DNA of 44,576 bases from a virus (IMGVR_UViG_3300032332_000389:1-44576), one strand, 5' to 3'. Shown: positions 11,863 to 44,576, counted from the first letter of the stretch. Notes: generated from the sequence alone by a model not told the origin. Translations and numbers: made by a program.

Positions 11863-12063
11863 TTACCCCGTCTTTTGGTTGGCTGCGCGGGACAGATTTC
11901 TCCCCATACGCATGCGGTCTTCACTAGTGGGGCCACCCTTTTTAAGCTTTAGGGATGTACCCTTACCGCCTTTATGCTCTTGAGCATCATGTTGTTTAAA
12001 CGCTTTTTTGATCATGGCTTTATCTTGTGCCAGATCACTCTTCATGTTTTCTTTAGCCATCAT
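11863..12063 (-). CDS. Small basic protein
   Basis: RBS AGGAG; LKKGG motif. Confidence 0.75.
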   Translation of the reverse strand: MMAKENMKSDLAQDKAMIKKAFKQHDAQEHKGGKGTSLKLKKGGPTSEDRMRMGRNLSRAANQKTG

Positions 12064-12069
12064 AAACTC

Positions 12070-12453
12070 CTATGAAACTGTTACCGTGCCAACACTTGTG
12101 GTTCCAACCAAGTAATTAGGCGTTAAAACTGCATCAAACTGACTAGCCCCACCTACAGGGTTCCAGCCCCATTGAATATCTCTGGAGCCTCCAGTTAGGT
12201 TACCAGAGCTATTCACACCTGCCGTTATGTATGTGGTGTCATGGCGGGGATTGCGCACAGCCTGTGGATCATCCACTGGATACATACCTAATTGCAACTG
12301 CGGCTGGTCTGGATCCCAGCAAGATCCACATACAAGCAAATTGTACGTCTTTGTCTTGATAATTTCCTTGCGTAATTCAGTTAATTTAAACCTAGCGCCA
12401 CACCTATCGCACATGGCAATACTATTCTTGCCGGATGCAAACCTATTACCCAT
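12070..12453 (-). CDS. Zn-ribbon (CxxC..CxxC) phage protein
   Basis: CDRCG...VCGSCWD.DQPQ; start re-set to MGNRF just after upstream stop. Confidence 0.75.
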   Translation of the reverse strand: MGNRFASGKNSIAMCDRCGARFKLTELRKEIIKTKTYNLLVCGSCWDPDQPQLQLGMYPVDDPQAVRNPRHDTTYITAGVNSSGNLTGGSRDIQWGWNPVGGASQFDAVLTPNYLVGTTSVGTVTVS

Positions 12454-12454
12454 G

Positions 12455-13153
12455 TCACGTTCCGCTTCCAATAAATACTTGGCGAGGCACGAACCTTACT
12501 GCTGCCTTCTCGCGGTCTTCATCAGCCGCTAGTTGCCAAGCTTCATCATATTGCTGCTTTAACGTACCAAGCCTATCCCCGCCATTGGGAACCTTCAGGG
12601 CTAAGTAGTACGCCAATCCAGCCACCATACAAGGCAAAAACCGGAACGGTACATCCATTGTGTTTACACCAGTCCCAGCATTGTCTATGCGGCGCAAGCG
12701 CCAATAAACAAACTGATAAGTCTGGGAGTTGTCTGGTACGGGCCAGACCGTGAATCTTGGCGTTTCCAACCGCTCTATCCAAACCTGAATAGGACGAGCC
12801 TGTTGCAACTTATTAGGAATAGTGGCATAAGTAGAAACACTAATACGGGTGATTGTCAGGTCTGCCTGTGTGGAAGCACTACCTGCACCGGTACGTATTA
12901 CATGCTCCAGAAGATCTACTGTGTCTTCTGGAAGATCATATGTAGCTGTTCCGGGGACAAGGTTAATAGTCCCCTGCTCAAACGTCCACATGTTTATGCC
13001 ACGGTTTGCCCAATCAGCAAACATGATGTTTAAACTGCGCCTAGCAGTACGTAAATCATACCCCGACCGAAGTTCGGAGCCAGCACGTTCAAACGCTTCC
13101 TCTACGATCTCCGTGAGGTCAAGATTGAAGTTTGCAACTCCTGAGACAGCCAT
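12455..13153 (-). CDS. Head-tail connector / tail tubular protein A-like
   Basis: 'EEAFERAG...ARRSLN.MFADWANRG...VWPVPD...P.RF.PC...GLAYYLA' pattern. Confidence 0.65.
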   Translation of the reverse strand: MAVSGVANFNLDLTEIVEEAFERAGSELRSGYDLRTARRSLNIMFADWANRGINMWTFEQGTINLVPGTATYDLPEDTVDLLEHVIRTGAGSASTQADLTITRISVSTYATIPNKLQQARPIQVWIERLETPRFTVWPVPDNSQTYQFVYWRLRRIDNAGTGVNTMDVPFRFLPCMVAGLAYYLALKVPNGGDRLGTLKQQYDEAWQLAADEDREKAAVRFVPRQVFIGSGT

Positions 13154-13156
13154 GTT

Positions 13157-13390: not shown

Positions 13391-13399
13391 GTTAATTTC

Positions 13400-14120: not shown

Positions 14121-14501
14121 TTAGCAAGCCATTCCGCCACGCTTCATGGTGATGTTTTTACCTTTGGTTTTACCCCTAGAGGCAACACCGTCTGCGCTTT
14201 TGTGACCTGAAGCAAGACCGCCAGATGCCATTTTCTTCATCTGCATTTTGTCCATCATCATGTCTTTCTTGGAGCCTTCTTTGGATCCTTTTTTCTCTGC
14301 GTCCTTACCGGACTTCTCAAACTTTGCAAAGGGATTCACACCTTTTGTAGCCATATCACCACCTCGTTTAAACGTTTTGCCTTTATCGGCGTTGCTAAAG
14401 TCTTGCCCCACAGACTGTGGAACCCCTACTTTCTTAGCAAACGATGGCGAGTGAGCTATCGCAGCCATGAAATTATGTTGTTTCTTGCTGATTGATGGCA
14501 T
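14121..14501 (-). CDS. Lys/Met-rich basic protein with ADG.A.RGKTKG motif
   Basis: Operonic ORF; three GG motifs. Confidence 0.75.
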   Translation of the reverse strand: MPSISKKQHNFMAAIAHSPSFAKKVGVPQSVGQDFSNADKGKTFKRGGDMATKGVNPFAKFEKSGKDAEKKGSKEGSKKDMMMDKMQMKKMASGGLASGHKSADGVASRGKTKGKNITMKRGGMAC

Positions 14502-14744: not shown

Positions 14745-15200
14745 TTAGCAGTTCCAAGCCTTCAAACTCTTATTGATACGGGAATTCGGGTCTTTTGCCG
14801 TCTTCTCGCGGTAGGCATCCCACTCTGGCGCATCCGCTGATGCGTATAAGTATTGTGCCGCAAATTCCAAAAGCATAGGGTCATCCCTAAAATGCCCTAA
14901 ACCCCGATTGCAATGGTTGCAAAGCATACCCCGAACCTTCCCGGTAACATGGTCATGGTCTACAACTAAAGCGTCTTCTACCCCGCAAATAACGCATTGC
15001 TTCACTGAAGTTTTTATTTCTTTAAGAACTTCATCAGGCATTACTGCACGATGTTTACCTCTGCAATTTTCACTCCGGTAGGTAGCACGGCATTCTCTGC
15101 ACCAGCTATCCAAACCATTGCGTTTTTTATTGTGCAATGGAAAAGCTTCAGCCGTTGCGGGCTTATCTACCTTACAGCGAGTACAAGTTAACAGTTCCAT
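14745..15200 (-). mobile_element. Endonuclease VII-family putative homing endonuclease, fused to a duplicate of the upstream gene's C-terminus
   Basis: CTRC/CREC Zn finger; CVICG...VDHDHVTGKVRGMLCNHCNRGLGHFRDD signature. Confidence 0.88.
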
Positions 15201-20691: not shown

Positions 20692-20693
20692 GT

Positions 20694-23210
20694 TTAAACA
20701 CCTTCTGATTTATCGACTGCCTGCATAGCAGACAGGGCTTGATCTCTCTTGTCTTTAGAGATCTGTGCGCCAAGTTTTATCCCGGCGTGTTCTTGGTCAA
20801 AGGTCTGCCGCTCTTGATCGGCTTTAATCTTTGCTCCAATCTTTGTACCCTCAAGCTGCATGTCTGCCTGTATGGCTTCACGCTTGAGGTTGTTTTGATC
20901 AGCTTTGCTTGCTGCATCTGCTGCCAGACGTTTTGTATCCAATTCCAAACGCGCTTGGTCAAGCTGGAACTTCTGCTGCGCCTCTTGAGTCTTAAGCTGC
21001 AATTCACCCTGTTTGATCTGGAGTTCTTGCATCTGCATTTGAACCAGAGGATCTTGGGCTTGTTGCTGGGCTTGTTGTTGGGCAGCTTGACCTTGGTTTT
21101 GTTGTAGAACTTGCTGGGCTGCTTGAGCGATCATGGTAGACAAGGCCAGCTCGACTTGCGGGGGCAACTCATCATCCTGCGGAGGTAGAGATATACCCAT
21201 CTGCTGTTCAATCTGCGCCCGATATTTAAACCCTGCATGCTCGGCTATATGGGCCATCATTGCAGCCTGTATCTGAGGAGCGCGGGGGTTTTGACCTATA
21301 GATTGTGCAATTAACGGGTCTTGTACAAAAGACATGTGAGTTGCAATATGGGCATCCTGATCTTGGTAGAAGAATGCTTTTACCGGCTCTCCTCTGAGAA
21401 CTGCCATATTCTCTGAAACCGGATCCATTGGTTTCTGGTCTTCTGGAAGCTTGACTAACTTATCTGCGTTCTTAATTCCAAGAACTTCTAACATCCTGCG
21501 GTGCAACTGTGGAAGATCATAGATATCCGGAGCCATCTGGGCCATCTGAATGACAGCCTGATACTGAACCACGCGCTGGCTCATGGTGGCTGCGTTGGGA
21601 TCAGATACGGGGATGATCTCTACATAGTCGTAGTCTTCCCGCTTGGCGCTTTTGTCGCCCTTTTCCGGTTTGTAGTCATAGTCTGCATCTGTGTAGTCAC
21701 GGATGATTTCAGCCAGAAGACCAAGTTCCTGTTTAAACGTGTAATGCAGGCGAGCTTGGATGGCGGTCATCACCTTTAACTGGCGCTCTAGGAGAGCCAA
21801 TGTGCTTCCTACAGGAGCTTGGGCAGACATGTCGCTGATGTTCATGTCCGCTGTAGCGGCAAACCTACGCCCTTCTTCCACGATAGTTCCAAGAAGGGCT
21901 GCCAGAACCTGACTGGGTTCTTTATATGGAAGGGGAAGGATGTTGTCCCTCAAGGCTCCAGAGCCAATATCTACATCACGGAACTCACCCGGCTGAATAG
22001 GAGTGTCATCTCCTTTGATCCGCAGTCCACGGGACTTCAGTCCACCCGGCAAATTAGATAGAGTTCCTGCGTCGATAAGCTGGCGCATGATGCTGGTTGC
22101 CGATTTAGCAAACCCACCAATAAGGTGGAACAGACCGAATCCATAAGCACCAAAGCCGGGGATGTATTGGTAATGGACAAAATGCTGGCGCTTTAAACGC
22201 AACTTGTCATCCTCTTCCCAGTTCCTGCGGATAGCCAAGACCTTGTTGTTGCCTTTGATCATGGTCACAACATAGGGCAGGGCGATACCGGTTGGGCCAT
22301 CCTCATCAACATCCTCAAATCCCGGCAGGTCTAGGTCTGCGTGGACTTCATAGATGGTGTAGCGGTCATCGTTTAAATCACTAAAGCCGGTTTCTTTGTC
22401 TTTAGCTTTTTTGATGTTGTCCTGCTCTTTGCCGGGGTCTGGTAGATCTATGTCCCGGTAGAAGCCTGCCTGTTGGAGCTTGATGATCTCATTCTTAGTC
22501 TTACGCATGACATGGGTCAGGCGGTAGCAGGTATCCAGATCCGTTGTTCCATAGGGCAGAAGGATGTCCTCTGCGGGGATAAACATAGATACTTGCCGTC
22601 CCAGATTGGGATCAAAATACACTTTCTTAAACGCAGAGCCTGTGGCAGGAAGACTCCAGAGCATGCGCTCTATCTCGGGACGGAACTCTTTCATTACCTC
22701 CGTGAGTTCATAGTTCATGTCATCCTCAACTCGGATGGCAGCTTCTTTCTTCTCAGGAGTTTCTTCTCCGATAATTTTTGTCCGCACCGGCCCTTGGGCG
22801 GGGAACATCTCGGTGATACTTTCTGACTGGAACCTTACAACTGCCTCGGTGATCATGGGATGGAATACCCCACTAGCTCCTGACCAAGGCTCTGTGCGTT
22901 CTTCAAACTGGAGACCTAGAAGTTTTAAACCCTCTGTATAGGCTTTTTCCCAATCCTTGCGGCTACCTTTGTCATTTGAGATATCCCCGTCCAGATCTCC
23001 TGCAATGGAAGACATTTCTCCCTCATCCATTTCTTCTGCGAGGTTTAAACCAAAGTCTTCATCTCCAGCCTCAATGGAGATATCTAGTCCGTCCATGTGA
23101 ATATTCACTGCCTCGGGATCGACAATCTCAATCTCTATTGCATCTTCTGCTTTTGCCAATTCATCCAGCCCAGCGGGGGCTTGGTACAAACTCTTATCAA
23201 AATTAGCCAT
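20694..23210 (-). CDS. Portal protein
   Basis: 838 aa directly after TerL; Gln-rich coiled-coil C-terminal barrel as in P22-like portals. Confidence 0.85.
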   Translation of the reverse strand: MANFDKSLYQAPAGLDELAKAEDAIEIEIVDPEAVNIHMDGLDISIEAGDEDFGLNLAEEMDEGEMSSIAGDLDGDISNDKGSRKDWEKAYTEGLKLLGLQFEERTEPWSGASGVFHPMITEAVVRFQSESITEMFPAQGPVRTKIIGEETPEKKEAAIRVEDDMNYELTEVMKEFRPEIERMLWSLPATGSAFKKVYFDPNLGRQVSMFIPAEDILLPYGTTDLDTCYRLTHVMRKTKNEIIKLQQAGFYRDIDLPDPGKEQDNIKKAKDKETGFSDLNDDRYTIYEVHADLDLPGFEDVDEDGPTGIALPYVVTMIKGNNKVLAIRRNWEEDDKLRLKRQHFVHYQYIPGFGAYGFGLFHLIGGFAKSATSIMRQLIDAGTLSNLPGGLKSRGLRIKGDDTPIQPGEFRDVDIGSGALRDNILPLPYKEPSQVLAALLGTIVEEGRRFAATADMNISDMSAQAPVGSTLALLERQLKVMTAIQARLHYTFKQELGLLAEIIRDYTDADYDYKPEKGDKSAKREDYDYVEIIPVSDPNAATMSQRVVQYQAVIQMAQMAPDIYDLPQLHRRMLEVLGIKNADKLVKLPEDQKPMDPVSENMAVLRGEPVKAFFYQDQDAHIATHMSFVQDPLIAQSIGQNPRAPQIQAAMMAHIAEHAGFKYRAQIEQQMGISLPPQDDELPPQVELALSTMIAQAAQQVLQQNQGQAAQQQAQQQAQDPLVQMQMQELQIKQGELQLKTQEAQQKFQLDQARLELDTKRLAADAASKADQNNLKREAIQADMQLEGTKIGAKIKADQERQTFDQEHAGIKLGAQISKDKRDQALSAMQAVDKSEGV

Positions 23211-23219: not shown

Positions 23220-24719
23220 TTAGTAATATTCGTATTTACGCCGAAAGATAGGTGCTTCATCTTCCTCATCTGAGGCAATTTGAATAAAGCCACCCTGCCG
23301 AAACCTCATTAAGGCTTGGCTGCTGGAGTCAACCAAGTCATCGTTATCCCCATAGGGGAATGCAGCCAATTCTTCCATGACCTCATCTGCCCAGCGTGTT
23401 GTTGGACACCATACAACCCCAGAGGCAAACAGGTCTGCAATAGAGTTTACACGGCTTATTTTGTCATTTCCTTTGCCCGGCGTGTACTCCGACAGGGGGA
23501 CTCCAATCTTTCTTAGCTCATATATAAGAGGCGCTCCGGCAGCACGCTTCTCAATAATCAATGTATCTGGCTCCCACTGTTTATACAACTCCAGAGCCAT
23601 CTTTTTAAGCTCAGGGAACTCCATACGTTGTTTAAATGCATCTAAGAGGATGATATTAGTCTTGTAGTTACCTTTGTCATCTGGGTGTTCAAATATTCCC
23701 CAAGTGGTGCAGGCTGAATAATCTGCCCTGTTATTCTTCTCAAAGGCTGTATCCCAAGACTGTATAAGGTAATCACACTGGGGCATCTTTTCATGTTCCC
23801 AGATTCTCCACTGATCCCTTTTGATAATTGCACCTTCATTACCGGTTGGGTTTTGTTGGTACTGCGCTTCCCATTTGGCTACGGGGAGTTCCGCTTTCAG
23901 CGACTCTAGTTCTTTCTTTGACCAGAACGCAGGCCAAAGAGGCGTTCCGGACGGGAGAATGGCGGGGAACTCTATAACTTCCCACTCATCTACCCCATCG
24001 TTTCCTGACTTCTTAAGAATCTGCCCTGTTAAATCTCGGGTAGCCCATCTGGTCATAACGATGATAATTGCCCCGTTAGGCTGAAGACGCTGACGAGGGC
24101 CAGAGGTGTACCACTCATAAACCCCATCAAAGATGGCAGGGTTATTCTGTTTAGCCTCTTGCTCTGAATGTGGATCATCAATGATCAGAAGATCTGCACC
24201 CTTACCAGTGACGGCTCCACCCACACCGATAGCAAAATAATCTCCACCCTTGTTGGTGTTCCACCGACCAGCAGCTTTGGAATCACTTGATAGCTTGGTA
24301 TCAAAGATCTTGGAATAATCATCAGAGGAGACTAGATTCCTCACTTTGCGTCCAAACCCTGTAGAGAGTTCTGCGGTGTGAGCAGTCTGGATAATCTTCT
24401 TCTCAGGAAACTTTCCCAAGAACCAAGACGGCAGAAGAAAAGAAGCAAACTCCGACTTAGTGTGTCGGGGTGGCATATTAATGATTAACCTCTTGAGGGT
24501 TCCATTAGCCACTCTCTCAAAAGCATCTGCCATGATCTTATGATGCTGCCCCGATATAAATATAGGCCACATCTGCTGGACAAAGAACAGGAATGACTCC
24601 CTGCACTTCTCAACCCTGTCCATCTCCAGTAAGGTATTTATCTTCGCCCGCTCAGTATCAGGAACCTTATCCACAATACTCAAATACCCCGCAATCTCTT
24701 TAGCAGTAAGGAGAGTCAT
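23220..24719 (-). CDS. terL: Terminase large subunit
   Basis: Walker A MPPRHTKS, Walker B LLIIDDP, MTRW motif, nuclease SWDTA...DYSA...DDLVD. Confidence 0.95.
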   Translation of the reverse strand: MTLLTAKEIAGYLSIVDKVPDTERAKINTLLEMDRVEKCRESFLFFVQQMWPIFISGQHHKIMADAFERVANGTLKRLIINMPPRHTKSEFASFLLPSWFLGKFPEKKIIQTAHTAELSTGFGRKVRNLVSSDDYSKIFDTKLSSDSKAAGRWNTNKGGDYFAIGVGGAVTGKGADLLIIDDPHSEQEAKQNNPAIFDGVYEWYTSGPRQRLQPNGAIIIVMTRWATRDLTGQILKKSGNDGVDEWEVIEFPAILPSGTPLWPAFWSKKELESLKAELPVAKWEAQYQQNPTGNEGAIIKRDQWRIWEHEKMPQCDYLIQSWDTAFEKNNRADYSACTTWGIFEHPDDKGNYKTNIILLDAFKQRMEFPELKKMALELYKQWEPDTLIIEKRAAGAPLIYELRKIGVPLSEYTPGKGNDKISRVNSIADLFASGVVWCPTTRWADEVMEELAAFPYGDNDDLVDSSSQALMRFRQGGFIQIASDEEDEAPIFRRKYEYY

Positions 24720-24946
24720 AACTTAACTATCTCCTTCATAGACTTGTCCGCCAACTTGATGGAATGAAACTTGTACGCCTTAATCTCAATATGCCCATCC
24801 TCTTTTAACCTATGAACAATCCTGTGAATATTGGACTTAGAAGACATCCCAAGAGACCTAGCTATCACCTCATATGAAGGAGATACACCATGCAACCTAA
24901 TATAGGCTCTGATGAAGTCCAAGACTAGCTGTCTGCGTTGAGTCAT
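24716..24946 (-). CDS. Stand-alone LexA-type winged-HTH DNA-binding domain (no peptidase domain)
   Basis: 'T.R...VLDFI..YI..HG.SPSY..IA..LG..SKS.IHR.V..L...G.I'. Confidence 0.85.
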   Translation of the reverse strand: MTQRRQLVLDFIRAYIRLHGVSPSYEVIARSLGMSSKSNIHRIVHRLKEDGHIEIKAYKFHSIKLADKSMKEIVKL

Positions 24947-24967
24947 TCTGTAAGTTTAAACGATAAA

Positions 24968-24979
24968 GCGAACGTTCGC
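24968..24979. promoter_or_regulatory. Palindromic candidate operator GCGAACGTTCGC
   Basis: Perfect 12-bp palindrome about 20 bp upstream of the LexA-like gene. Confidence 0.4.
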
Positions 24980-25167
24980 AACTATCTTTCTAAAATTTAT
25001 ATATACCCCACCCCTGTTGGAGAAGAAAGAGATGGGGGTATGTTGCTATGTAATCGTTAGAGGGGATTAGAGCGTAACGTAAGCGGGGGCGTGTGCGAGT
25101 CATACAGGCGGGTGGGGGTACGGTGGGGTCTCGCCCTGCCGTTTAAACCACTCCCTCGTTTACACCG

Positions 25168-25761
25168 CTACGCCGCCTTGCCGCCTAGTAGCTTCAGGTG
25201 ACCTGACAGATCACGCTTGAGTTGGTCTGCCGTTGGTGCTGCCACTTCGGTGTCTGTTGTTGGTGTAAACACACCTGCTGCCTTGCCCATAAGCTCCAGA
25301 GCTTTGAGGCGGCTGCCCTCTTGTTTAGCTCCCTTGCTCAGTGCAAGTAGCTGCCTCAGTACATATCTCTTGGTTGCTGCTAGATCCTCTGTTAGTGCTT
25401 CCGCAGTCTCTCCCCATGCATCTTCCAGCATCTGACCTATGACAGGATGCCTAGTCAGTTTGTATGCGTTAGCACTGATTACCCTGTTGCTACTGTGATC
25501 GTCTGGGTATGCTTCCCTATAGGCATCTGTATTACTGAGACCGCTTATCTTGGCTCTTACGAATGCCAATTGCTTCTCTGTGAGTCTTCGCTGTCTCGGG
25601 GCGGTTATGACCTGTCCATCCTTGCGCTTTGCCGGAGCCTCAGCCGCTGCTGCCAGCACTTCAGCCTCAGTGTCTAGCCATTGATCCTCTACTGCCTCTC
25701 CATCCTGCTGCGCGGCGTTTTCTAGATCATTGAGATAATCTATTGACGTTGTCTTACCCAT
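25168..25761 (-). CDS. terS: Terminase small subunit
   Basis: 'LTEKQ.AFV....G.S.TDAYR.AY.......A..L...P.I' HTH and 'RLKALELMGK..G.F'. Confidence 0.85.
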   Translation of the reverse strand: MGKTTSIDYLNDLENAAQQDGEAVEDQWLDTEAEVLAAAAEAPAKRKDGQVITAPRQRRLTEKQLAFVRAKISGLSNTDAYREAYPDDHSSNRVISANAYKLTRHPVIGQMLEDAWGETAEALTEDLAATKRYVLRQLLALSKGAKQEGSRLKALELMGKAAGVFTPTTDTEVAAPTADQLKRDLSGHLKLLGGKAA

Positions 25762-25787
25762 AGTCTTTCCCCTTTGCGTGGTCTGTA

Positions 25788-25821
25788 CTGGTCAAGTATA
25801 CAGCACTGTGCATTTAAACAG
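25788..25821. promoter_or_regulatory. Two tandem LexA (SOS) boxes
   Basis: CTGG-TCAAGTAT-ACAG (25788-25803) and CTGT-GCATTTAA-ACAG (25806-25821); CTG-N10-CAG. Confidence 0.65.
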
Positions 25822-25840
25822 CACTGTTCGTGGCCCAATG

Positions 25841-25891
25841 TTATCCACAGCCTGTGCATAAGTAAAGTTATCCACCGCAAATTGTGGATAA
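25841..25891. promoter_or_regulatory. Four DnaA boxes in two inverted pairs
   Basis: TTATCCACA 25841, TGTGCATAA 25853, TTATCCACC 25868, TGTGGATAA 25883. Confidence 0.8.
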
Positions 25892-25895
25892 TAAA

Positions 25896-25912
25896 TGCAC
25901 CAAAATGGTGAA
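25896..25912. promoter_or_regulatory. NtrC-type enhancer site
   Basis: TGCACCAAAATGGTGAA, one mismatch to TGCACCAWWWTGGTGCA. Confidence 0.6.
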
Positions 25913-26024
25913 AAACGCGATAGAGCGACTTCAGCGCATGGGTCAAGGGGTAGGTAGCACCAACCCCTTAAAGTCGCTCAGATTCGTTCAAAATTTGGCA
26001 AATAGACACATTGGCGACACCTGC

Positions 26025-26040
26025 TGGCATGACTCATGCT
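26025..26040 (+). promoter_or_regulatory. Sigma54-like -24/-12 element
   Basis: TGGCATGACTCATGCT has GG-N10-GC spacing, about 115 bp from the NtrC-type site; -12 is ATGC, not TTGC. Confidence 0.4.
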
Positions 26041-26100
26041 ACATGCGCGCATCGCGTATCTCTGTTAGTCACTGGTAAGCCTGTAATCCCTGCTTCAATC

Positions 26101-26126
26101 AATACCCCTACGGTTCAGTCGGATAA
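26101..26126. promoter_or_regulatory. IscR/Rrf2-like site abutting the early promoter
   Basis: AATACCCCTACGGTTCAGTCGGATAA; right half resembles the IscR type-1 half-site (YAGTCRRSTAT). Confidence 0.4.
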
Positions 26127-26129
26127 CTA

Positions 26130-26159
26130 TTGCGCCCATGTTTTAAACACTACTACAAT
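26130..26159 (+). promoter_or_regulatory. Candidate early sigma70 promoter
   Basis: TTGCGC-N18-TACAAT, 40 bp before the first plus-strand gene. Confidence 0.6.
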
Positions 26160-26199
26160 GTGGTTGTGCAATGTCGCACAGTAGATTGGAGACCCTCTC

Positions 26200-26331
26200 A
26201 TGTATACCGCTCAGATCAATGCCCACGGCAATGTGATCGTCTGCAAAGGCGATACCGTCCGCAATTCATACCGTATCGTTTTCACTGGCACTTATGCAGA
26301 GTGCCTCGCAGTAAAGGCAGGTGCAGCATGA
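26200..26331 (+). CDS. Small early protein (43 aa, MYTAQINAHGNVIVCKGD...)
   Basis: Hand-translated; GGAG RBS; ATGA overlap with next gene. Confidence 0.7.
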   Translation: MYTAQINAHGNVIVCKGDTVRNSYRIVFTGTYAECLAVKAGAA

Positions 26332-26546
26332 GCAAATTCAAAACCTACACCAACGCCATGCTGGCCTACGCGCTGGCTGACTGCCACGCCACGCTAGAGG
26401 CTGGACAGTATGCCGCTGACCATCCCTACGGGCGCAAACTGTGGCTGGAGATCGATGCCATTCGGGACGAGCAAATGTCCCGCCGCTCAATTGCAAGGGC
26501 CGTGTCCCGCCGCATCAAAGCGGGAACCCTCGCCGCTGGAGTCTGA
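26328..26546 (+). CDS. Small early protein (MSKFKTYTNAML...)
   Basis: Start re-set to the ATGA overlap. Confidence 0.7.
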   Translation: MSKFKTYTNAMLAYALADCHATLEAGQYAADHPYGRKLWLEIDAIRDEQMSRRSIARAVSRRIKAGTLAAGV

Positions 26547-26548
26547 CT

Positions 26549-26716: not shown

Positions 26717-26785
26717 CATTTCAGCGGCTTGCCTCGCCGTGCGGGGCTTGCCAGTGCAATGTCGCACTGTTTGGAGATTGACCCT

Positions 26786-28851: not shown

Positions 28852-28861
28852 GAGGATCACA

Positions 28862-31151: not shown

Positions 31152-31374
31152 CTGGTACACCACTCACACTAGGGTTTGGACGCATACCGCGCTTGGGGAA
31201 ACACAAATAGCGGACTGTACCAATAAGAATCTGCCCACTGCTGATCAGCGTTTAAACGCACGAATGTGTGCGGCCTCACCTGCACTGATGGAATTACTAG
31301 AGTCGATACCTTACCTAGAGCCTGACCATCTCAATACCCTGATAAGCATACGCAAGTATGTTTACCAAGGTTAG
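31144..31374 (+). CDS. Hypothetical protein
   Basis: 'NAR..AASP.LME.LE' motif common in phage early genes. Confidence 0.7.
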   Translation: MSDWYTTHTRVWTHTALGETQIADCTNKNLPTADQRLNARMCAASPALMELLESIPYLEPDHLNTLISIRKYVYQG

Positions 31375-31854: not shown

Positions 31855-31931
31855 CTGTTTAAACGATTGATACGCCTGATACGCCTGAAACGTCAGTGAT
31901 TAAAAACTAAACATGTACAGTCGTTTAAACG

Positions 31932-33617
31932 CTAAAACATATCTAGGTTTTCACTGTACGTCCCTGACGTTGTATTGAATAGCAGGGTTGTCTCGCCCTG
32001 AGTGCCAACCCAACGGTGACGGCATTTCCATACCGCCATCTCTACAAAGCCTTCCTTCCTGTGGATCGTGATGCCGCAGTCGGTCTTGGCCCACCACGCC
32101 ATCGATCCGCTGATGCTCATGCCGTCCGGTCTCGGTTGCTCCATGCCTGTACGGTTGACCTTGGCGGGGTGAGCAACAAACCAGCAATGTAAATCGTGTG
32201 CCTTCACAAAACGCTGCACCTTGGTGAGCATGTCTGAGATGGCCTCAGTCTCAGTCGAGTTGCGGGTCAGATCTAAAAAGTTGTAGGGGTCGATCACCAA
32301 CCCCCGCACTCCCATACGCTTTATTGCCACCTTGGCGCGGGTCAGGATCGACTCAAGGGTCGAGGGTTCATCCCCATTGGTATCAATGAATAGAAAATGG
32401 TCGTTGACCCATTTAAACGCTTCATCCTTTTCCTGATCGTTCATTCTGTTTTTACCGTCAAAGAACCGCTTCCTAGTGTAGATCTCCATCAGTCGGGTAA
32501 TGTGGATCTCAGGCTGATTCTCAAAAGAACAGATGGCAAACTTCCAGTCATCATCACGGGCTAGGTTAACGGTGATCTGATCCACGAAGTTGGACTTACC
32601 GGACGATGGGTAGCCAGTGACCACTGTTAGCTGGGCAGGGGCCACCGTGTAAATGTCATCGATGGACTTAAAGCCGGTGCTGAATCCTTTCCCAGTACCG
32701 CGTGCGTACAGGTCGTTTAAACGATCCTTGTAGGTCGTCGCTTCGGATAGGCCAGCAATCGGGTACGCCACCGCCGCATCCAGTATCTCCCTTATATGCG
32801 TTGAGGGGTCGTTCGTTGAGGGGTCGTTAAGAAAAATTTCGTTGAGGTCTTTTGCGGCGAACTTAGCTAATCTGCATTTCTCTTTACCTATCCGTCGGGC
32901 TAACTCCTCTGCCAATGCTTGGCCCGGCGTGTCTTGGTCTGTGGCTAGGATTACATAGGGTGCTGCGTCTAAATACTCTACTGCGCTCCATACATAGCTG
33001 AACCGCTTGTCTTCGCTTGGCAGAACTTTACCGTCTGCAACCTTGATGGGAGCGCCGCTCGGCACTGACACCACGTTCTCTATTCCTGCCTCCATCAATG
33101 TGAGGCAATCAATCTCACCTTCTACGATGATGATGGGCTTACCCTTCTCAAGCTGGTCGAGGCCAAAGAAATCATGCGCTCCACCTGTATCTTGTGTAAA
33201 CGCTTTATCTGGGAAGCTTCGATATTTAACAGCAACCAATGCACCGTTGCGGTAATAAGGAAACGCTATGGCATCGGAGTGGCGGTCAAGTTTGGGAAAG
33301 AATTTATCTGCGCCGAATAGCCGCATGCGGTCTGCGGTTGGTTTAGATATGCCCCGCGACAGAAGGTAGTCGTAGTGAAAGGGCTGAAGGACTTGGTTTT
33401 CTATTTTGAGGACAGGGACGGCTGACAATTTTATCTCCTTGGGTTGTATTGATCCACTTGCAGAACAGTGATGACAGTGATACACAACCGCGCCGTCAGG
33501 CTTGCGTGTCAGGGTCATATCTTTTATGTTTTGTTTCTTGCGCTCGTTTGAACAGTAGGGGCAAGCAATCCTACCGGTCTGGTCAAAGCCAGACCTTTCT
33601 ATCATGGCTTCGATCAT
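31932..33617 (-). CDS. T7 gp4/Twinkle-like primase-helicase
   Basis: Zn finger CPYC..CHHC, TOPRIM VEGEID..ATDQD.PG, Walker A GYPSSGKS, LVIDPYN, VAHP. Confidence 0.93.
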   Translation of the reverse strand: MIEAMIERSGFDQTGRIACPYCSNERKKQNIKDMTLTRKPDGAVVYHCHHCSASGSIQPKEIKLSAVPVLKIENQVLQPFHYDYLLSRGISKPTADRMRLFGADKFFPKLDRHSDAIAFPYYRNGALVAVKYRSFPDKAFTQDTGGAHDFFGLDQLEKGKPIIIVEGEIDCLTLMEAGIENVVSVPSGAPIKVADGKVLPSEDKRFSYVWSAVEYLDAAPYVILATDQDTPGQALAEELARRIGKEKCRLAKFAAKDLNEIFLNDPSTNDPSTHIREILDAAVAYPIAGLSEATTYKDRLNDLYARGTGKGFSTGFKSIDDIYTVAPAQLTVVTGYPSSGKSNFVDQITVNLARDDDWKFAICSFENQPEIHITRLMEIYTRKRFFDGKNRMNDQEKDEAFKWVNDHFLFIDTNGDEPSTLESILTRAKVAIKRMGVRGLVIDPYNFLDLTRNSTETEAISDMLTKVQRFVKAHDLHCWFVAHPAKVNRTGMEQPRPDGMSISGSMAWWAKTDCGITIHRKEGFVEMAVWKCRHRWVGTQGETTLLFNTTSGTYSENLDMF

Positions 33618-35868: not shown

Positions 35869-36750
35869 ATGAAAATTACGAACAAGTACAACCTACCCGA
35901 GGCATTAGTCAGTGCCATGCTGAAGGATGACTACACCAAAGGCGCTTCTGAGTATAGCGTTACAGGGCTATTGCAGCCACCTAAAGTTGCACTGTTACGC
36001 GAACAGTACGACGGTCAGATAGAGATAGACGTTAGCGACAAGATGTTCACCTTCCTTGGTACTGCACTACATAAGGTGCTGGAAGCCACGCTAATGCCTG
36101 ATAACTGCACGTTCGAGGAGCGTCTGCATACCAAGGTAGACGGAACAAGTATCAGCGGCGCAATCGACGTACAGGAACGCGGAGCGAACGGTACAACCAT
36201 CTGGGACTACAAGGTCACTTCGGTATGGTCTGTGATCAACGAGAAATCTGAGTGGGTAGAGCAACTCAACATGTACAAGTGGCTAGTGGAGACCGTCAAG
36301 GGTGAGCGGATCGTTGGACTCAAGATCTGCGCATTCCTGCGGGACTGGAGCAAGAACGGCAATGGTGCTAACTACCCCGAGGCATCCATCGTCACTGTAG
36401 ATATCCCGATGTGGACTGCCACAGAGACTGAGGCTTTCATTATGGATCGTTTAAACGCACATAAGAAAGCAAAGATGGCAAGAGATTTTGGAGAAGAGCT
36501 ACCACCCTGCTCCAACGCAGAACGCTGGATGTCGGAAACGACATTTGCCGTAAAGAGAGAGGGTCGCAAGACTGCGATCCGTGTATTAACCAATGTAAAA
36601 GAAGCCAAAGAGATGGCAATAAAGGAAAAAGGATATGTCGAAACAAGACTCGGGGAGCCAAGGCGCTGCGCAGGAAACTACTGCCAAGTCGCCCAGTGGT
36701 GCAGCCAATACCAAGGAGAAGTCAATCGTGAAAGTGACGGCATTGCATAA
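35869..36750 (+). CDS. RecB/Cas4-like PD-(D/E)XK exonuclease
   Basis: 'GTALH..LE...EERL...ISGAID.....I.DYK...QLN.Y', C-terminal Cys cluster. Confidence 0.85.
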   Translation: MKITNKYNLPEALVSAMLKDDYTKGASEYSVTGLLQPPKVALLREQYDGQIEIDVSDKMFTFLGTALHKVLEATLMPDNCTFEERLHTKVDGTSISGAIDVQERGANGTTIWDYKVTSVWSVINEKSEWVEQLNMYKWLVETVKGERIVGLKICAFLRDWSKNGNGANYPEASIVTVDIPMWTATETEAFIMDRLNAHKKAKMARDFGEELPPCSNAERWMSETTFAVKREGRKTAIRVLTNVKEAKEMAIKEKGYVETRLGEPRRCAGNYCQVAQWCSQYQGEVNRESDGIA

Positions 36751-37919: not shown

Positions 37920-38321
37920 ATGACACTCCAATTTGAATGCAGGAAGATAGCGTTGAAGCAAGACCGCTCCGGTTTTGTTTTGACCCTAGCTATACACCCT
38001 GACGAGTTGCCCGAAGAACTGATTCGGGACTTTGTCGGGGCGCGTTATGCATGCGTCATGGTAAGGCTCAAAGATGATGAGTCTGCCACCGAATACAGCA
38101 ACCGCACCCAGCAGGCAGGGATCCTATGTCGCACACCGCTATTTCAGTCCTTTATTGGTCAGGCATATGTAGGTAGCGATTGCACAGAAGAAGAGACGGC
38201 AGCGGCTCTGTGCCGTGAATGCGGCATAGATTCTCGGACGGAACTCAATGGGAATGTCTCAGCCAAGTTCAGGTTTGATGAGATCCTCAAAGAGTTTGAA
38301 ACATGGAAGATGAGCATATGA
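37920..38321 (+). CDS. Hypothetical protein
   Basis: Start MTLQFEC; 'AG.LC....F......CGIDSRTEL..N..A..RF'. Confidence 0.7.
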   Translation: MTLQFECRKIALKQDRSGFVLTLAIHPDELPEELIRDFVGARYACVMVRLKDDESATEYSNRTQQAGILCRTPLFQSFIGQAYVGSDCTEEETAAALCRECGIDSRTELNGNVSAKFRFDEILKEFETWKMSI

Positions 38322-38608
38322 GTAAGTTAAAACCATTTATGACTTACATGACCGAAACAGACCATACCAGTCTGCGTAAGTTTGCAAGGGCAAAGAAGAT
38401 CACGATGGCACAACTAATCCGCGAAGGGGTGGGCATGAGGATGTCGGATGGGACTTATGCCTCTGGGTTTAATGATGGGGTGAAAGCCTCCATTGAGTCC
38501 ATTAGCAAACTCCCTGCCGCGCAGATGAGATTCCCTAGTGGTCAGTCATTTGCAGAACTCATCTCAGATGAACTGTTTAAACGAATGATTGTGGGGAACA
38601 CCAAATGA
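38318..38608 (+). CDS. Ribbon-helix-helix-like DNA-binding protein
   Basis: 'FMTYM...DH..LRKFA..KKITMAQLIREG'. Confidence 0.65.
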   Translation: MSKLKPFMTYMTETDHTSLRKFARAKKITMAQLIREGVGMRMSDGTYASGFNDGVKASIESISKLPAAQMRFPSGQSFAELISDELFKRMIVGNTK

Positions 38609-38817
38609 AACTAACCGGCAGACGTAACCAATGCCAAAGCTGCAAAGAGTATTTCAACAGCAATGATGCTTTTGATATACACCGGACAGGTAAACATGGC
38701 GTAAACCGCAGATGCAGGACTCCAGAAGAAATGATGGATAAGGGAATGCTTGTAAACAATGATGGCTTCTGGATAGGTAGGCCGTCTACTAGGGAGTTTG
38801 CAAATGAAGATGCTTGA
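38605..38817 (+). CDS. FDXHR zinc-binding phage protein
   Basis: 'CQSC.EYF.S..AFDIHR.G.....RC..P'. Confidence 0.75.
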   Translation: MKLTGRRNQCQSCKEYFNSNDAFDIHRTGKHGVNRRCRTPEEMMDKGMLVNNDGFWIGRPSTREFANEDA

Positions 38818-39010
38818 GTTTATTAAAAATTATATGCGACAACCAACGCATATGGAAATGGTGAACAGGGAACTTGAAGAAGCCAAGCTGGAAAAGCTGG
38901 AAGCAGAAACCGCAGTGGAGTATGCGCAATCTATTGTGCAGTACAACACAAAGAGAATAGATCGTTTAAACATATATATCGCCGAGCAAGGCAAGGAGAA
39001 ATCAAAATGA
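38804..39010 (+). CDS. Hypothetical coiled-coil protein
   Basis: GGAG RBS; operonic. Confidence 0.7.
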   Translation: MKMLEFIKNYMRQPTHMEMVNRELEEAKLEKLEAETAVEYAQSIVQYNTKRIDRLNIYIAEQGKEKSK

Positions 39011-39591: not shown

Positions 39592-40026
39592 ATGAAAGAT
39601 GAAACAAGACAGGAAATTAGTGCAGCCTATGCAAAAGACTACACCGACTGGATGGTAAAGACAGGCGGCTTTGCAAGGGACATGACGCTGCGGGATTACT
39701 TTGCGGGGCAGATACTGCGCCTTTACACGGACGATAAGCCTAACCACATGAAACTCAACGCAGAGCAAGCGTATATGCAAGCGGACTACGCGCTCAAGGA
39801 GCGCATCAAAGACTCAACAAAAGAAAACCCGTCATCATTAGATGATTGGGACTTAACAGTGCGTGTTCGCAATTGCTTAAAAGCTGAAGGTATAAACACC
39901 GTAGGTACGTTAGTTCCGTACACACAATCTGATTTACGCCGCATACCAAACATGGGGCGCAAGTCAGTTAAGGAAGTGGTTACAGAAGCCGCATTGCGTG
40001 GGTTCACTATTAAGGAATACAAATGA
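39592..40026 (+). CDS. 'MTLRDYFA' domain fused to an RNA polymerase alpha-CTD-like domain
   Basis: LDDWDLTVRVRNCLKAEGINTVGTL...DL.RIPNMGRKSVKEV closely parallels the RpoA CTD. Confidence 0.85.
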   Translation: MKDETRQEISAAYAKDYTDWMVKTGGFARDMTLRDYFAGQILRLYTDDKPNHMKLNAEQAYMQADYALKERIKDSTKENPSSLDDWDLTVRVRNCLKAEGINTVGTLVPYTQSDLRRIPNMGRKSVKEVVTEAALRGFTIKEYK

Positions 40027-41393: not shown

Positions 41394-41394
41394 T

Positions 41395-41592
41395 ATGACT
41401 GAACATGAACAAAATTTACGAGACCTTGCTGCTATCTTTGCAATGTCTGCACTGCTCATCCGAAACGATGATGACCCGCATGAACAAGCATTTGCCATAG
41501 CCAACTCCTTTATGGAAACAAGAGAGTCTATGAACAAGGAATTAGACGGGATAGCGGCCCTTAAACGGCCCCGAAAGGCAAAGGATGTATAG
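41395..41592 (+). CDS. Hypothetical protein
   Basis: 'LRDL.A.FAM..L......A..IA...M..R'; operonic. Confidence 0.65.
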   Translation: MTEHEQNLRDLAAIFAMSALLIRNDDDPHEQAFAIANSFMETRESMNKELDGIAALKRPRKAKDV

Positions 41593-41872
41593 GAACCCCA
41601 AGCTGCTACAAGCGGTCAGGGATTGCCCATGCCAGCACTGTGGGGCCAAAGATGGAACCATAGTTGCTGCCCACTCCAATCAGATGCGGGACGGCAAAGG
41701 AAGGGGACTCAAAGCCTATGACTACCGTATTGCAGCCCTATGCTTTAAATGCCACTACGAGATAGATCAGGGCAAAGACTTATCCCGGGCGGAGCGTTTA
41801 AACATATGGGAAGATGCTCATCGGGCCACCATAGGGTGGCTCTTTGAGAACGACCTCATCAAGGTCGGATGA
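41585..41872 (+). CDS. DUF1364/YbcO-like Zn-binding putative nuclease
   Basis: 'R..KLL....CPCQHCG.....VAAHSN....GKG.GLKA.D..IA.LC..CH..ID'. Confidence 0.75.
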   Translation: MYRNPKLLQAVRDCPCQHCGAKDGTIVAAHSNQMRDGKGRGLKAYDYRIAALCFKCHYEIDQGKDLSRAERLNIWEDAHRATIGWLFENDLIKVG

Positions 41873-44576
41873 TGTTGCGGATCTGCCTGATGTCGTTTAC
41901 CAGCAGGTTCTGAGCCTTGGTAATCTCCATCAGCATATCCCGCTTCTCATCCGCAGGTATGGATGCAGCCCTGATCATATTAGCCTGCTGTTGAAGCTCA
42001 TCCATCTGCTTGTTTAAACCATTCATAAAATCCCGTGCAGCAAAAAGCTGTGCGTTCTTCTCAACATAGTCCGGAAGATTTGGATCTGCTTCTTTTTCAA
42101 GCTTGTTAATTGTCCGCACGGTGGTATCCACTGCATGCTTTAAATCAAAGTACGAGGTGATCTTGCCACGAGCTTCTGGGTCTGCCAAGAAACGTTTGAT
42201 GATTGGCATCTGCTCTATGCGCTTGGATGGTTTATCTATACCTGATGGAGACACCGCCTCTATGCCTGCATCTAGTAGGTCTGCTGCGTAAACACCCATC
42301 GTTCCTGTGTAACCTTTAAACACATGGTCAATCATCATGGGGGACATACCTGCCTGCTGTCCAAGAATCTCTGCCCACTTAGATGTTCCGGGGCCTACTT
42401 GGAACTCAGGGGCAATACCCTGCATGTTTTGCCCAACGATAGGACGTTGTGTAAACACCGAGTAGTTATCGCGTGCCTCTAGCAAAGGAGCAGCTATCTG
42501 TGGCACAGGATTTAAACCAAATGTGCTTTGCAACGCACGCCTCATGGATTTTTGTAAATCCTCTGTGGTGTCGCGGTTCTCTTTATTTTCCATAAAGAAG
42601 CTGCGATAGATCCGCTCGGGGATTGTTTTAAATAGCGTACCAACTTCAAACGGGATTGGGATCTTGAGCGGGGTCTTGCCTTCGCCCATAGGAATAATCC
42701 AGTTGTTGTCCTTGGTTTCCTCTTCCTGCTTCTCATAATCAGGGTTACCAGAGATCGCCATTGCGTACATAACACTCAACCCAAGCAGGGTCATGCCACG
42801 GATGATCATGGCTTTCTGGACTTGTTTCTCTTGCTCTGTGGCATTGGCATCCATAAATGGACGGATACCGGCACGGAAGAACACATCCAAACCTTGGACA
42901 CGAGCGTTTAAGAATGGGATGGCTGCTGCTGCAATACGAACAACGGCAGAGCTTCCCTTGCGGTTGAAGTTCATCACCTCCAACGCACGGTGGATAGCCT
43001 CTGCTTCGTTGCCTGTCTCAGCAAGGGTTGCCTTGTAAACAGCAATACGAGTGGCAGCATCAGATGCCTCAGTTCCCTTTTCCAGTGCATCCCAGAAGAA
43101 GGTAAAGGGAGATGTAGCAGACTCAAAGCTGGTCTTGGTTCCAGTCTTTTTACGCAAATCTTTGGCAAAAGCTTCTGCGCTGGCCTCGACATTGCGGGAA
43201 AATTCATATCCACCCAAGACACCAGCACTCAGAAGCTTCTGGTACTCGGGAGAGTTGTTCATCAGAACGTTTCCCATCTCCTTGACTGCCGATGCCACAG
43301 GGGTCAGCTTTGCCCCGCTAGTTACATACGCAGATACAGAGTCACGCATCAAGTTAGCCAGCATGAAGCCCGGATCCTTGGTAACCGCTGAACGCAAGAA
43401 GTTGGCAGGCATGGCAAGGAAGTTCAGGAACGGCAGTTCAGGTAGGTTTAAACTGCTAACAGCATCCACCCAGAGCTTGTCTGCGCATTCATACGAAACC
43501 TTCTGACCCTTCTCAAGGATGGTTACGGTGTTGGGGCCAGAGGCCACATAATCCAGTTTGCGAACCATTTGCAGGGTCATGCCGCCCTTGACAGCTTTTT
43601 GAGCTGCCACGTTCTTCATGCCAGCTTGGATGATGGACTGGGTATTACGAACAACAGTCTCAAGGAAATCAGCTAATGGTGCTTCGCTACCAGTGATTTT
43701 CTGAGGGCCTTTAACACCAGAGATACTCTGGAAGATGTTTGGCCCGACAGTGCGCTCACCTTCTAGTTGGCGATAGAAAGGCACATAGTCTGAGTATCGA
43801 ACAAACTCTGCTGCGTTTTGGGCAGAAATAACGCCAGTGTCTACTGCGTACTTAACGAGTCCATCGTTGTACTTGATCCAGTCTTTCTGCACGTTCACAA
43901 ACTCTGGGTACTGTTGCTCCAGTTCTTTGGCATAAGCCATATCCTGCGGGGTGTACAGTTCCTCTTTGCCGCTTGCTAAAAGGCGTTTACCGCGCTTTGC
44001 ACCGGCCCAGAACTGATAGGCTTGATAGATCCTTGGGTTGCCGTATTTTGCAAGCGGAGAGAAGATCTCTACCGCACCCTTAACCGTACCGTTTTCGTTG
44101 CTTACAGTGGTGTAGCCGTTGCGATAAACAGGGGTTCCACCCATGCGGTTACCAACACCCAACGCAGAGGCAGCAACCCCCGCAGCAGCATCAGACTGCA
44201 AGGCGGCAGCATGTGCGCTCTGGTCAGCAAGATAAGCAACTCCGCCCATTTGCTGAGCAACCAGCTTATCAAAGTCGTTTAAACGGTTGTAGCGGTCAAG
44301 AGCTTTTTGACGCAGATAAGAAAAAGTTTCTGATCTTCCAGCAAGAGCGGTAGTCATACGCTCTACATAGCCAACCTCTTGCCGAGCGGTAGTGACTCGG
44401 TTGATGGCTGCGTTAATAGCTGCCCCGTTGGGCAGGCTATCAATGTCTTTGGTTACGTCAGTGCGCAGGCTGTAGCGAGTGGGCGTTCTGTCTTCTTGCT
44501 CACGCTCGCGCCGACCAGTTTCTTCATTCATGCGCACCATTAATGCATTTACATCATTAAAGTCTTTGCCAACATA
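41859..44576 (-). CDS. Large internal virion (ejected) protein with LPD38-like C-terminal region; 5' end beyond window
   Basis: Frame open to the window edge; 'NF.RKG......IPFLNA.VQG', 'KDNNWIIP.....KIP.PFE.G.LFK.IPER'. Confidence 0.75.
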   Translation of the reverse strand, partial: YVGKDFNDVNALMVRMNEETGRREREQEDRTPTRYSLRTDVTKDIDSLPNGAAINAAINRVTTARQEVGYVERMTTALAGRSETFSYLRQKALDRYNRLNDFDKLVAQQMGGVAYLADQSAHAAALQSDAAAGVAASALGVGNRMGGTPVYRNGYTTVSNENGTVKGAVEIFSPLAKYGNPRIYQAYQFWAGAKRGKRLLASGKEELYTPQDMAYAKELEQQYPEFVNVQKDWIKYNDGLVKYAVDTGVISAQNAAEFVRYSDYVPFYRQLEGERTVGPNIFQSISGVKGPQKITGSEAPLADFLETVVRNTQSIIQAGMKNVAAQKAVKGGMTLQMVRKLDYVASGPNTVTILEKGQKVSYECADKLWVDAVSSLNLPELPFLNFLAMPANFLRSAVTKDPGFMLANLMRDSVSAYVTSGAKLTPVASAVKEMGNVLMNNSPEYQKLLSAGVLGGYEFSRNVEASAEAFAKDLRKKTGTKTSFESATSPFTFFWDALEKGTEASDAATRIAVYKATLAETGNEAEAIHRALEVMNFNRKGSSAVVRIAAAAIPFLNARVQGLDVFFRAGIRPFMDANATEQEKQVQKAMIIRGMTLLGLSVMYAMAISGNPDYEKQEEETKDNNWIIPMGEGKTPLKIPIPFEVGTLFKTIPERIYRSFFMENKENRDTTEDLQKSMRRALQSTFGLNPVPQIAAPLLEARDNYSVFTQRPIVGQNMQGIAPEFQVGPGTSKWAEILGQQAGMSPMMIDHVFKGYTGTMGVYAADLLDAGIEAVSPSGIDKPSKRIEQMPIIKRFLADPEARGKITSYFDLKHAVDTTVRTINKLEKEADPNLPDYVEKNAQLFAARDFMNGLNKQMDELQQQANMIRAASIPADEKRDMLMEITKAQNLLVNDIRQIRNIIRP

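Follow-up and report, generated by a model that had tools for sequence, protein, structure and literature searches.

The window analysed here is the whole IMG/VR record IMGVR_UViG_3300032332_000389:1-44576, a linear viral sequence of 44,576 nucleotides that is 75% complete. It contains an array of the 8-bp palindrome GTTTAAAC, referred to below as the word. By PHROGs and Pfam the window encodes tail and head proteins, terminase, a LexA-like helix-turn-helix (HTH) protein, a primase-helicase, an exonuclease, Sak and an LPD38 protein. The portal protein shares about 42% identity with those of HTVC023P- and CRP-901-type phages, and a near DNA relative of positions 20000-44576 was not found among cultured phages. 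The early unit begins with a SprT-like gene, followed by MoxR/CobS-like AAA+ and vWA genes. The word, as GTTTAAAC or as GTGTAAAC, follows this SprT-like gene when the encoded protein ends in a zinc-ribbon tail with the motif QxTR. That this C-terminal tail reads the word is a prediction from sequence that we consider likely. The sites and the features that bear on them are the following (ORF, open reading frame; terS, gene of the terminase small subunit).

11994-12001: GTTTAAAC in a small ORF (11863-12063, minus strand)
13028-13035: GTTTAAAC in a virion gene (12455-13153, minus strand)
14366-14373: CGTTTAAACG in an ORF (14121-14501, minus strand)
20692-20699: GTTTAAAC spanning the portal stop codon, with the next ATG 1 bp downstream
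21731-21738: GTTTAAAC in the portal gene
23043-23050: GTTTAAAC in the portal gene
24954-24961: intergenic GTTTAAAC, 8 bp upstream of the LexA-like HTH gene start
25141-25148: intergenic GTTTAAAC after terS
25812-25819, plus strand: variant ATTTAAAC, 51 bp upstream of the terS start
26130-26159, plus strand: candidate early promoter (TTGCGC, 18 bp, TACAAT), seen by eye and below the threshold of the scan tool
26141-26148: one-mismatch site TTTTAAAC inside the spacer of the candidate early promoter
26786-27370, plus strand: SprT-like gene, 194 residues, likely reader of the word (phrog_6361; weak PF10263 match, below cut-off)
27032-27046, plus strand: HExxH motif (HELCH, residues 83-87), intact in the window
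27221-27367, plus strand: C-terminal zinc ribbon (QxTR..C..C..R....W...C), predicted DNA-reading domain
27861-27868: GTTTAAAC in the MoxR/CobS-like AAA+ gene
28545-28552: GTTTAAAC in the AAA+ gene
28869-28876: CGTTTAAACG, 7 bp into the vWA gene
29935-29942: GTTTAAAC in the vWA gene, kept in 40 of 50 aligned relatives
30493-30500: GTTTAAAC near the end of the vWA gene
31250-31257: CGTTTAAACG in a small early ORF
31857-31864: intergenic GTTTAAAC between the converging early and primase units
31923-31930: intergenic CGTTTAAACG, 66 bp from the preceding site
32715-32722: CGTTTAAACG in the primase-helicase gene, kept in all 65 relatives whose residues are unchanged there
36449-36456: CGTTTAAACG in the exonuclease gene
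38575-38582: GTTTAAAC in an ORF (38303-38608)
38964-38971: GTTTAAAC in an ORF (38804-39010)
41796-41803: GTTTAAAC in an HNH-like ORF (41585-41872)
42012-42019: GTTTAAAC in the LPD38 protein gene
43446-43453: GTTTAAAC in the LPD38 protein gene
44277-44284: CGTTTAAACG in the LPD38 protein gene

Number, placement and conservation of the sites

A sequence-only reading of this DNA had noted at least 24 copies of the word where about one was expected. A full count returned exactly 24 perfect copies, position by position as noted, and the null models agreed: 0.99 +/- 1.03 copies (maximum 5) were expected from 100 dinucleotide shuffles and 0.85-1.8 from Markov models of orders 2-5 trained with the sites masked. 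The 6- and 7-mer composition accounted for the count only when the sites were left unmasked. Orders 5 and 6 then expected 21 and 47 against 48 observed on both strands, because the sites themselves supply those 6- and 7-mers and the models absorb the signal. Synonymous codon shuffles retained a mean of 5.4 copies, the four untouched intergenic ones included.

Nineteen copies are intragenic, where they are read in two frames as xLN or xFKx, one spans the portal stop codon and the next ATG (20692), and four are intergenic, in line with the mixture of frames and intergenic positions described earlier. The frequent extension of the word was also borne out: a C precedes 26 of the 48 half-sites and seven sites have the extended form CGTTTAAACG. 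Of the one-mismatch variants, only ATTTAAAC (12 against 1.5-2.3 expected) and GTGTAAAC (9 against 1.2-1.4) are clearly enriched; the remaining variants seen occur 1-5 times each, with about 1-3 expected, and are not clearly enriched. With these variants the consensus broadens to (C)GT(T/G)TAAAC(G), and the 24 perfect copies and 21 main variants make up well over 20 dispersed copies of one site. Spacing is irregular (66-6326 bp), density is highest over the early and replication genes, and the tail-fibre region (1-11993) holds no perfect copy. Separately, restriction-site avoidance is strong in the window: 19 of the 64 six-base palindromes are absent, among them CTGCAG and CAGCTG (22 expected each).

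Selection at the level of the DNA, which the earlier reading had proposed, is indicated by the coding sites. The word is spelled at 19 of the 30 coding positions with permissive residues, where codon usage predicts 1.01, and 5 of the remaining 11 differ from it by a single base; for ten control AT-rich palindromes, 0-2 of 8-23 permissive positions are realised. In word-rich relatives with unchanged residues at a window site, which are not independent of each other, the word persisted in 200 of 216 comparisons, where background codon retention would give about 30. The corresponding figure for word-poor relatives was 0 of 13. Many other sites turn over, which suggests that the number of sites matters more than their position. 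The idea of a genome-wide binding site is thereby supported at the level of selected, dispersed sites.

Association of the word with the SprT-like gene and its tail

Loci picked by the primase carried at least two sites per 10 kb in 79 of 80 cases, and loci picked by the portal carried none in 70 of 80. Among 11 records that are at least 90% complete, the nine with a SprT-like gene had 18-49 copies and the two without it 2 and 3, in a comparison that is confounded since it concerns one clade. The cultured sample comprised 12 phages with a SprT homologue (of 164) and 8 of 18 portal relatives. All eight cultured phages with the QxTR tail were enriched in GTTTAAAC or GTGTAAAC, which often ranked first among the 8-mers. 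Observed and expected counts of GTGTAAAC were 22/0.6 in Zeta1847, 18/0.7 in VroomVroom, 35/1.2 in Marky and 13/0.6 in 4A; those of GTTTAAAC were 17/0.5 in R5C, 7/0.1 in Mica, 6/0.5 in HeidiAbel and 6/0.5 in MQ-4. The four phages with a different SprT tail had no GTTTAAAC and at most one GTGTAAAC, and an alternative enriched word was looked for in these four and not found. None of the seven portal relatives without the gene was enriched in the word, and the eighth has a distant SprT homologue with another tail and another word. The tail alone matched 13 of the 14 word-rich genomes and none of the 15 word-poor ones.

Since the eight word-rich cultured phages were picked by the SprT-like gene, only the presence of the word and the lack of other shared genes are informative. 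The SprT-like gene is the only one of the 75 window ORFs with a tblastn match in all eight, and the word-bearing phages, which span Actinomycetota and Alpha-, Beta- and Gammaproteobacteria, have no other window gene in common. The readers named earlier, that is the LexA-like protein (24716-24946), the ribbon-helix-helix-like protein (38303-38608) and small basic proteins, gave no tblastn match in these eight phages and were dropped as universal readers.

Eighteen loci of metagenome-assembled genomes (MAGs), picked by the protein, contained 47 sites in 219 kb against about 2 expected, and 17 of them had at least one. The reverse test picked viral-contig loci by a double-site DNA pattern only (the first 80 of 120, for which long flanking DNA was available, with 55 loci of at least 10 kb). 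Nineteen of the 55 were word-rich and 13 of these carry a SprT-like gene or tail. As to the other six, one record has the gene elsewhere; in another, a distant homologue is preceded by a site at about 100 bp and followed by a pair at 10 bp; two are a single record (G083) and two are fragments that are 28-35% complete. Among the 36 word-poor loci nine had a gene or tail hit, and in eight of these the site pair lies directly before the gene.

Three side observations concern words other than GTTTAAAC. A clade member (G029; L133, L288-L289) has no GTTTAAAC, 22 ATTTAAAC (1.5 expected), 8 ATTTAAAT and a slightly different tail, a pattern that may reflect either a switch of word across the whole array or avoidance of a PmeI-type site. 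MW202675.1 (L264-L266) encodes, near 32598-33203, a distant SprT-like protein with a different zinc-ribbon tail; ATCGTACG occurs 19 times (2.3 expected), once about 50 bp before this gene, and this is possibly a second pair of tail and word. In Zeta1847 (L230-L232) GAGCTC (189 against 55 expected) and CGAGCTCG (81 against 17) are abundant; these are unrelated to the word and may be codon-driven.

AlphaFold2 gave a confident two-domain model of the SprT-like protein (pLDDT, predicted local distance difference test, 93). Residues 1-139 have a minigluzincin-type fold and align with abylysin (Z 7.8, root-mean-square deviation (rmsd) 2.6, 90 residues), SPRTN 6mdx (Z 7.6, rmsd 3.5, 95 residues) and Wss1 (Z 7.2, rmsd 3.5, 104 residues). 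The match to PF10263 is below cut-off (E 1.3e-4), and HELCH together with the fold match identifies an HExxH zincin. For the tail no Pfam family was matched in the window and VIA-align gave no Z of 5 or above; Foldseek found nothing that reached E 0.001 with either the full model or the tail. Among known sequence-specific zinc-ribbon regulators, the Ogr/Delta type (Ogr_Delta) was matched weakly in 2 of 55 family members (E 0.025). ORFs of about 55 residues that consist of the tail only were found at three loci amid 40, 23 and 18 sites, with sites just upstream; these loci are on partial contigs and two are nearly identical. The HExxH motif was lost in 9 of 29 clade rows, by three changes on the tree of which at least two are forced by strong branches, and the sites persist in these rows (16-49 per record in eight; the ninth has 6, together with many GTGTAAAC). 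Invariant alignment columns are concentrated in the tail and include Q153, T155, R156, C162, R170 and W175. The tail-only ORFs, the loss of HExxH with arrays kept and the clustering of invariant columns together indicate that the tail, not proteolysis, goes with the word; in the relatives the protease motif is dispensable for this association. SPRTN, Wss1 and the minigluzincins share with the SprT-like protein the fold of residues 1-139, HExxH and a DNA-binding module C-terminal to the protease. The phage family differs in that relatives can do without the catalytic motif and the tail also occurs alone. Recognition of a specific sequence is not known for SPRTN, Wss1 and the minigluzincins.

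Site placement in the window and in its relatives

A pair of sites lies directly before the SprT-like gene at nine long and two short loci. At six of these 11 the first site lies over a TTGCGT -35 box, with a -10 box 17-18 bp away and the second site after that -10 box. In six of the eight word-rich cultured phages a site lies within about 100 bp before the gene. In Arthrobacter cluster AZ phages 7 of 17 sites of Maureen (p 7e-5) and 10 of 18 of VroomVroom (p 8e-7) are intergenic; these all have one orientation and lie mostly 4-40 bp before starts, including that of the SprT gene itself. Sites of AZ and EH phages directly follow TAnnnT in 9 of 57 cases, against a background of 0.3%, and in 0 of 57 in the reverse orientation. 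In these temperate relatives the placement of the sites is operator-like. The AZ and Microbacterium EH phages that encode the SprT-like protein (Lizalica gp46, Maureen gp49) differ from the window phage in that they use GTGTAAAC and mostly integrate.

The main text of a preprint describes the AZ phages as temperate with no repressor identified, and all of them as carrying a SprT-like gene with a predicted DNA-binding tail (10.1101/2025.05.26.655371). According to the same text, Liebe, which has a one-base insertion (frameshift) in this gene, forms clear plaques and Maureen turbid ones; a SPRTN-like protease function is favoured and a role in lysogeny suspected (10.1101/2025.05.26.655371). Unshown 'repeat sequences' near the gene are also mentioned there, which may include word sites (10.1101/2025.05.26.655371). 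TAAAC and GTTTA do not occur in that main text and no binding site is named in it, the supplements lying outside the search (10.1101/2025.05.26.655371). Lysogens of Powerpuff are reported to be homoimmune without a known repressor, and the passages covered name no site (PMC8758107). The SprT-like protein may thus be the immunity repressor of the AZ phages.

Among 43 distinct loci of window relatives, 24 have a perfect site within about 70 bp of the terS start, where the density predicts about 4, and 30 have one when the main variant is included. Repression would fit these sites at the terS start of relatives and, in the window itself, the site before the LexA-like gene, the variant in the spacer of the likely early promoter and the density over early and replication genes. 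A sigma-70 promoter scan of 24700-27000 gave no match, the early promoter being assigned by eye only. In R5C, Mica and HeidiAbel sites occur every 4-6 kb. At L433 (218-439), 13 copies of GTTTAAAC are packed into 220 bp, mostly 16-17 bp apart, and this dense array is a candidate decoy, centromere-like element or origin.

The LexA-type HTH protein lacks a peptidase domain. Its gene (24716-24946, minus strand) lies between terS and terL with GTTTAAAC 8 bp before its start, and within the clade all 6 word-rich IMG/VR genomes have it and none of the 3 word-poor ones does. Outside the clade it does not follow the word; it could be a local partner within the clade. Three 9-mers that resemble the DnaA-box consensus lie at 25841, 25853 and 25883 (25841-25891), in the region from which terS and the early genes diverge, and at least two lie beside terS in 42 of 43 relative loci. 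In a phage without integrase this cluster may serve as a DnaA-dependent origin or as a DnaA sink, and it would suit a host-coupled origin.

Proposed repression and the competing explanations

In the explanation that we propose, the SprT-like protein of the phage itself (26786-27370) would bind the array sites through its C-terminal zinc ribbon, with two copies of the protein presumably recognising the near-palindrome (C)GT(T/G)TAAAC(G). A homodimer prediction spoke neither for nor against this (score 0.11, mark 0.42). Binding to a site that overlaps a promoter would block the initiation of transcription, and the many intragenic sites would probably slow transcription as roadblocks or loading sites. 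In a lineage that does not integrate, this could hold the genome quiet in a carrier or stalled state, control superinfection, or shut early and replication genes on time. The protease domain would be an accessory scaffold or a damage-sensing switch and not the reader. On balance, repression is slightly more likely than not to be the job of the array in the window phage.

Several observations weigh against this. In the window only 4 of 24 sites are intergenic (p 0.04), and one is an intergenic site in the 100 bp upstream of a start (p 0.43). Adjacency to a -10 box was absent there (1 of 48 half-sites) as in the clade (11 of 484), Marky (0 of 35) and R5C (0 of 34). No perfect site lies directly before the SprT-like gene in the window or in most of the clade, and tyrosine integrase, serine recombinase and ParA are all missing from five complete relatives. 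Unlike with typical repressors, the same word recurs across phyla, so that a diversity of immunity types is missing. The fold of the tail matches generic zinc ribbons only (best Z 3.9). Liebe differs from Maureen at three further positions according to the preprint text (10.1101/2025.05.26.655371). One word-rich record, G083 (81% complete), has 25 sites in 17.9 kb and no SprT or tail match, and three word-rich fragments (of the L351, L361 and L353/L383 type) have no detectable tail. The loci with tandem sites probably belong to one prophage family, and the tail-only ORFs, on partial contigs, perhaps to one clade, so that the counts overstate the number of independent events. The window fits less neatly in its few intergenic sites, its lack of -10 adjacency and the lack of an integrase in complete relatives; its array is read as operators plus many intragenic roadblock or loading sites.

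G083 (L337, L385, L492) has inverted terminal repeats, and most of its sites that were viewed are extended to TTCC-GTTTAAAC-GGAA beside a ribosome-binding sequence. Its word probably has another reader.

A repressor array of this kind has a counterpart in the cluster A mycobacteriophages. L5 and TipsytheTRex are reported to have more than 20 copies of one short site genome-wide, some at promoters, with one phage reader (PMC9283540). These stoperators are 13 bp long, asymmetric, located in short intergenic gaps and oriented with transcription, and the repressor is a monomer with HTH and Stoperator domains (PMC9283540). In that system binding halts both initiation and elongation and confers immunity; the observations here that bear on this are the site geometry and the published plaque difference between Liebe and Maureen. 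The window likewise has more than 20 dispersed copies of one site, and its AZ relatives have the transcription-linked orientation. In contrast, the window site is an 8-10-bp (near-)palindrome with a C/G flank preference only, 19 of 24 copies are intragenic, the candidate reader is a zincin plus zinc ribbon without HTH, and close relatives lack an integrase. By analogy, the window array would work like a stoperator array that differs in site symmetry, placement and repressor fold.

The same reader could have another job, the sites tethering a DNA-dependent protease of the SPRTN/Wss1 type, or a protective coat, that clears or blocks host silencers, restriction or other defence complexes. This agrees with the alignment of the N-terminal domain to abylysin, SPRTN 6mdx and Wss1 (Z 7.2-7.8), the intact HExxH in the window, the mostly intragenic sites with their highest density in the early and replication region, and the constancy of the word across host phyla. 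However, the motif was lost at least twice with the array kept, tail-only ORFs accompany the densest arrays, and operator geometry at the gene's own promoter would not be needed. HeidiAbel, with the gene and six sites, is moreover reported as very restriction-sensitive (10.1101/2024.09.12.612763). We regard this explanation as unlikely.

A structural job for the same reader, in which the array would organise, segregate or license replication of a non-integrated genome like parS, iterons or matS, appears still less probable. The missing integrase in five complete relatives, the DnaA-box-like 9-mers beside terS (two or more in 42 of 43 loci), the closely spaced sites of L433 and the 4-6 kb intervals in R5C, Mica and HeidiAbel would all suit it, but ParA is absent in 5 of 5 complete relatives, the spacing in the window is irregular and the integrating AZ phages put their sites at promoters.

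HIP1 (GCGATCGC) of cyanobacteria is an 8-bp palindrome that is strongly over-represented in any reading frame with synonymous positions kept; it fills the host chromosome and is linked to methylases. The window word is like it as an over-represented 8-bp palindrome, in any frame and kept synonymously. Unlike HIP1, it is confined to phage DNA and goes with a phage gene; annotation of the 71 ORFs scanned in this 75% complete record showed no methylase. The likeness is one of form only. Among cellular assemblies, the closest homologue of the SprT-like gene was found on a contig of 5 kb in a Burkholderiales MAG, which is no more than a hint at the host. A Burkholderiales MAG with a related phage contig has 68 copies of the word against 110 of a control word in 3 Mb, and 41 genomes of Burkholderiales have 55 CGTTTAAACG against 169 of the control in summed counts. 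The enrichment seen in relatives did not extend to these candidate hosts, on which the rejection of the earlier analogy to HIP1 as a host-type mark is based. A host protein or methylase that reads or creates the word, in the manner of HIP1 or an uptake sequence with the SprT-like gene as a hitch-hiker, would account for G083 and leaves room for another host. Since the candidate hosts lie below control, it is very unlikely; the word also occurs in phages of four host groups with no other window gene in common, and is lost where the tail changes.

A signal for packaging, nicking or ejection, recognised by virion or terminase proteins, would be short, conserved and dispersed as the word is, and a site often lies just before terS; nick motifs are known from some podophages. 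It is nevertheless highly improbable because the word ignores head-gene kinship: near-identical head genes occur without it (70 of 80 portal loci), and siphoviruses and myoviruses with unrelated head genes carry it. Composition, codon bias or directed mutation without selection is the least probable of all, for although synonymous retention alone cannot separate selection from constant re-creation, 19 of 30 positions are realised where 1.0 is expected, the tail-only ORFs have no enzyme domain and the AZ sites are promoter-specific and oriented.

A bolder form of the repressor proposal is possible, if doubtful. The SprT-like protein would be a widespread and so far undescribed one-protein switch whose zinc ribbon reads a near-universal word and coats the phage genome via sites in coding sequence, with the SPRTN-like protease as damage sensor or guard. 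It would be the AZ/EH immunity repressor and would allow an abundant lineage of freshwater podoviruses that lacks integrase to persist as a silent, extrachromosomal, DnaA-replicated element. Tail variants that read other words (ATTTAAAC, ATCGTACG) would then form a re-programmable code.

In the literature no paper was found that gives the site of the SprT-like family, subscription papers and bioRxiv supplements lying outside the search. Searches for GTGTAAAC or GTTTACAC as a phage motif returned nothing on the word among the matches listed, those for over-representation of GTTTAAAC in phages nothing relevant, those for highly iterated palindromes with phage cyanobacterial work only, those for SprT-like phage anti-defence only the structural likeness to SPRTN, and those for a SprT zinc ribbon as a phage repressor with an operator nothing. 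The tail-only ORFs, the dead-protease versions, the promoter geometry and the AZ evidence are new here. They provide binding-site, domain and promoter-layout candidates for a phage protein that is common but bears no annotation beyond 'SprT-like protease', and make the question of which protein is the AZ/EH immunity repressor directly testable (10.1101/2025.05.26.655371; PMC8758107). Cultured material exists in the natural mutant and parent Liebe and Maureen and in the Escherichia coli phage HeidiAbel, which has the gene and sites. If the proposal is true, repressors need not be HTH proteins, operator arrays can sit in coding DNA at one site per 1-2 kb, the 8-mer count would be a marker of regulatory mode in uncultured phages, and a sequence-specific DNA binder of 50 residues would be a compact tool.

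Some other genes may be mentioned. The MoxR/CobS-like AAA+ and vWA pair (27373-30520, plus strand) lies directly 3' of the SprT-like gene, and the vWA protein has an HELLH of its own. HNH and endonuclease VII genes (9664-10134 and 14745-15200, minus strand) are inserted among the structural genes. A small protein encoded at 39592-40026 (plus strand) has a C-terminal RNA polymerase alpha C-terminal domain (PF03118, E 1.5e-18), and a gene similar to it lies three ORFs before the SprT gene of Mica.

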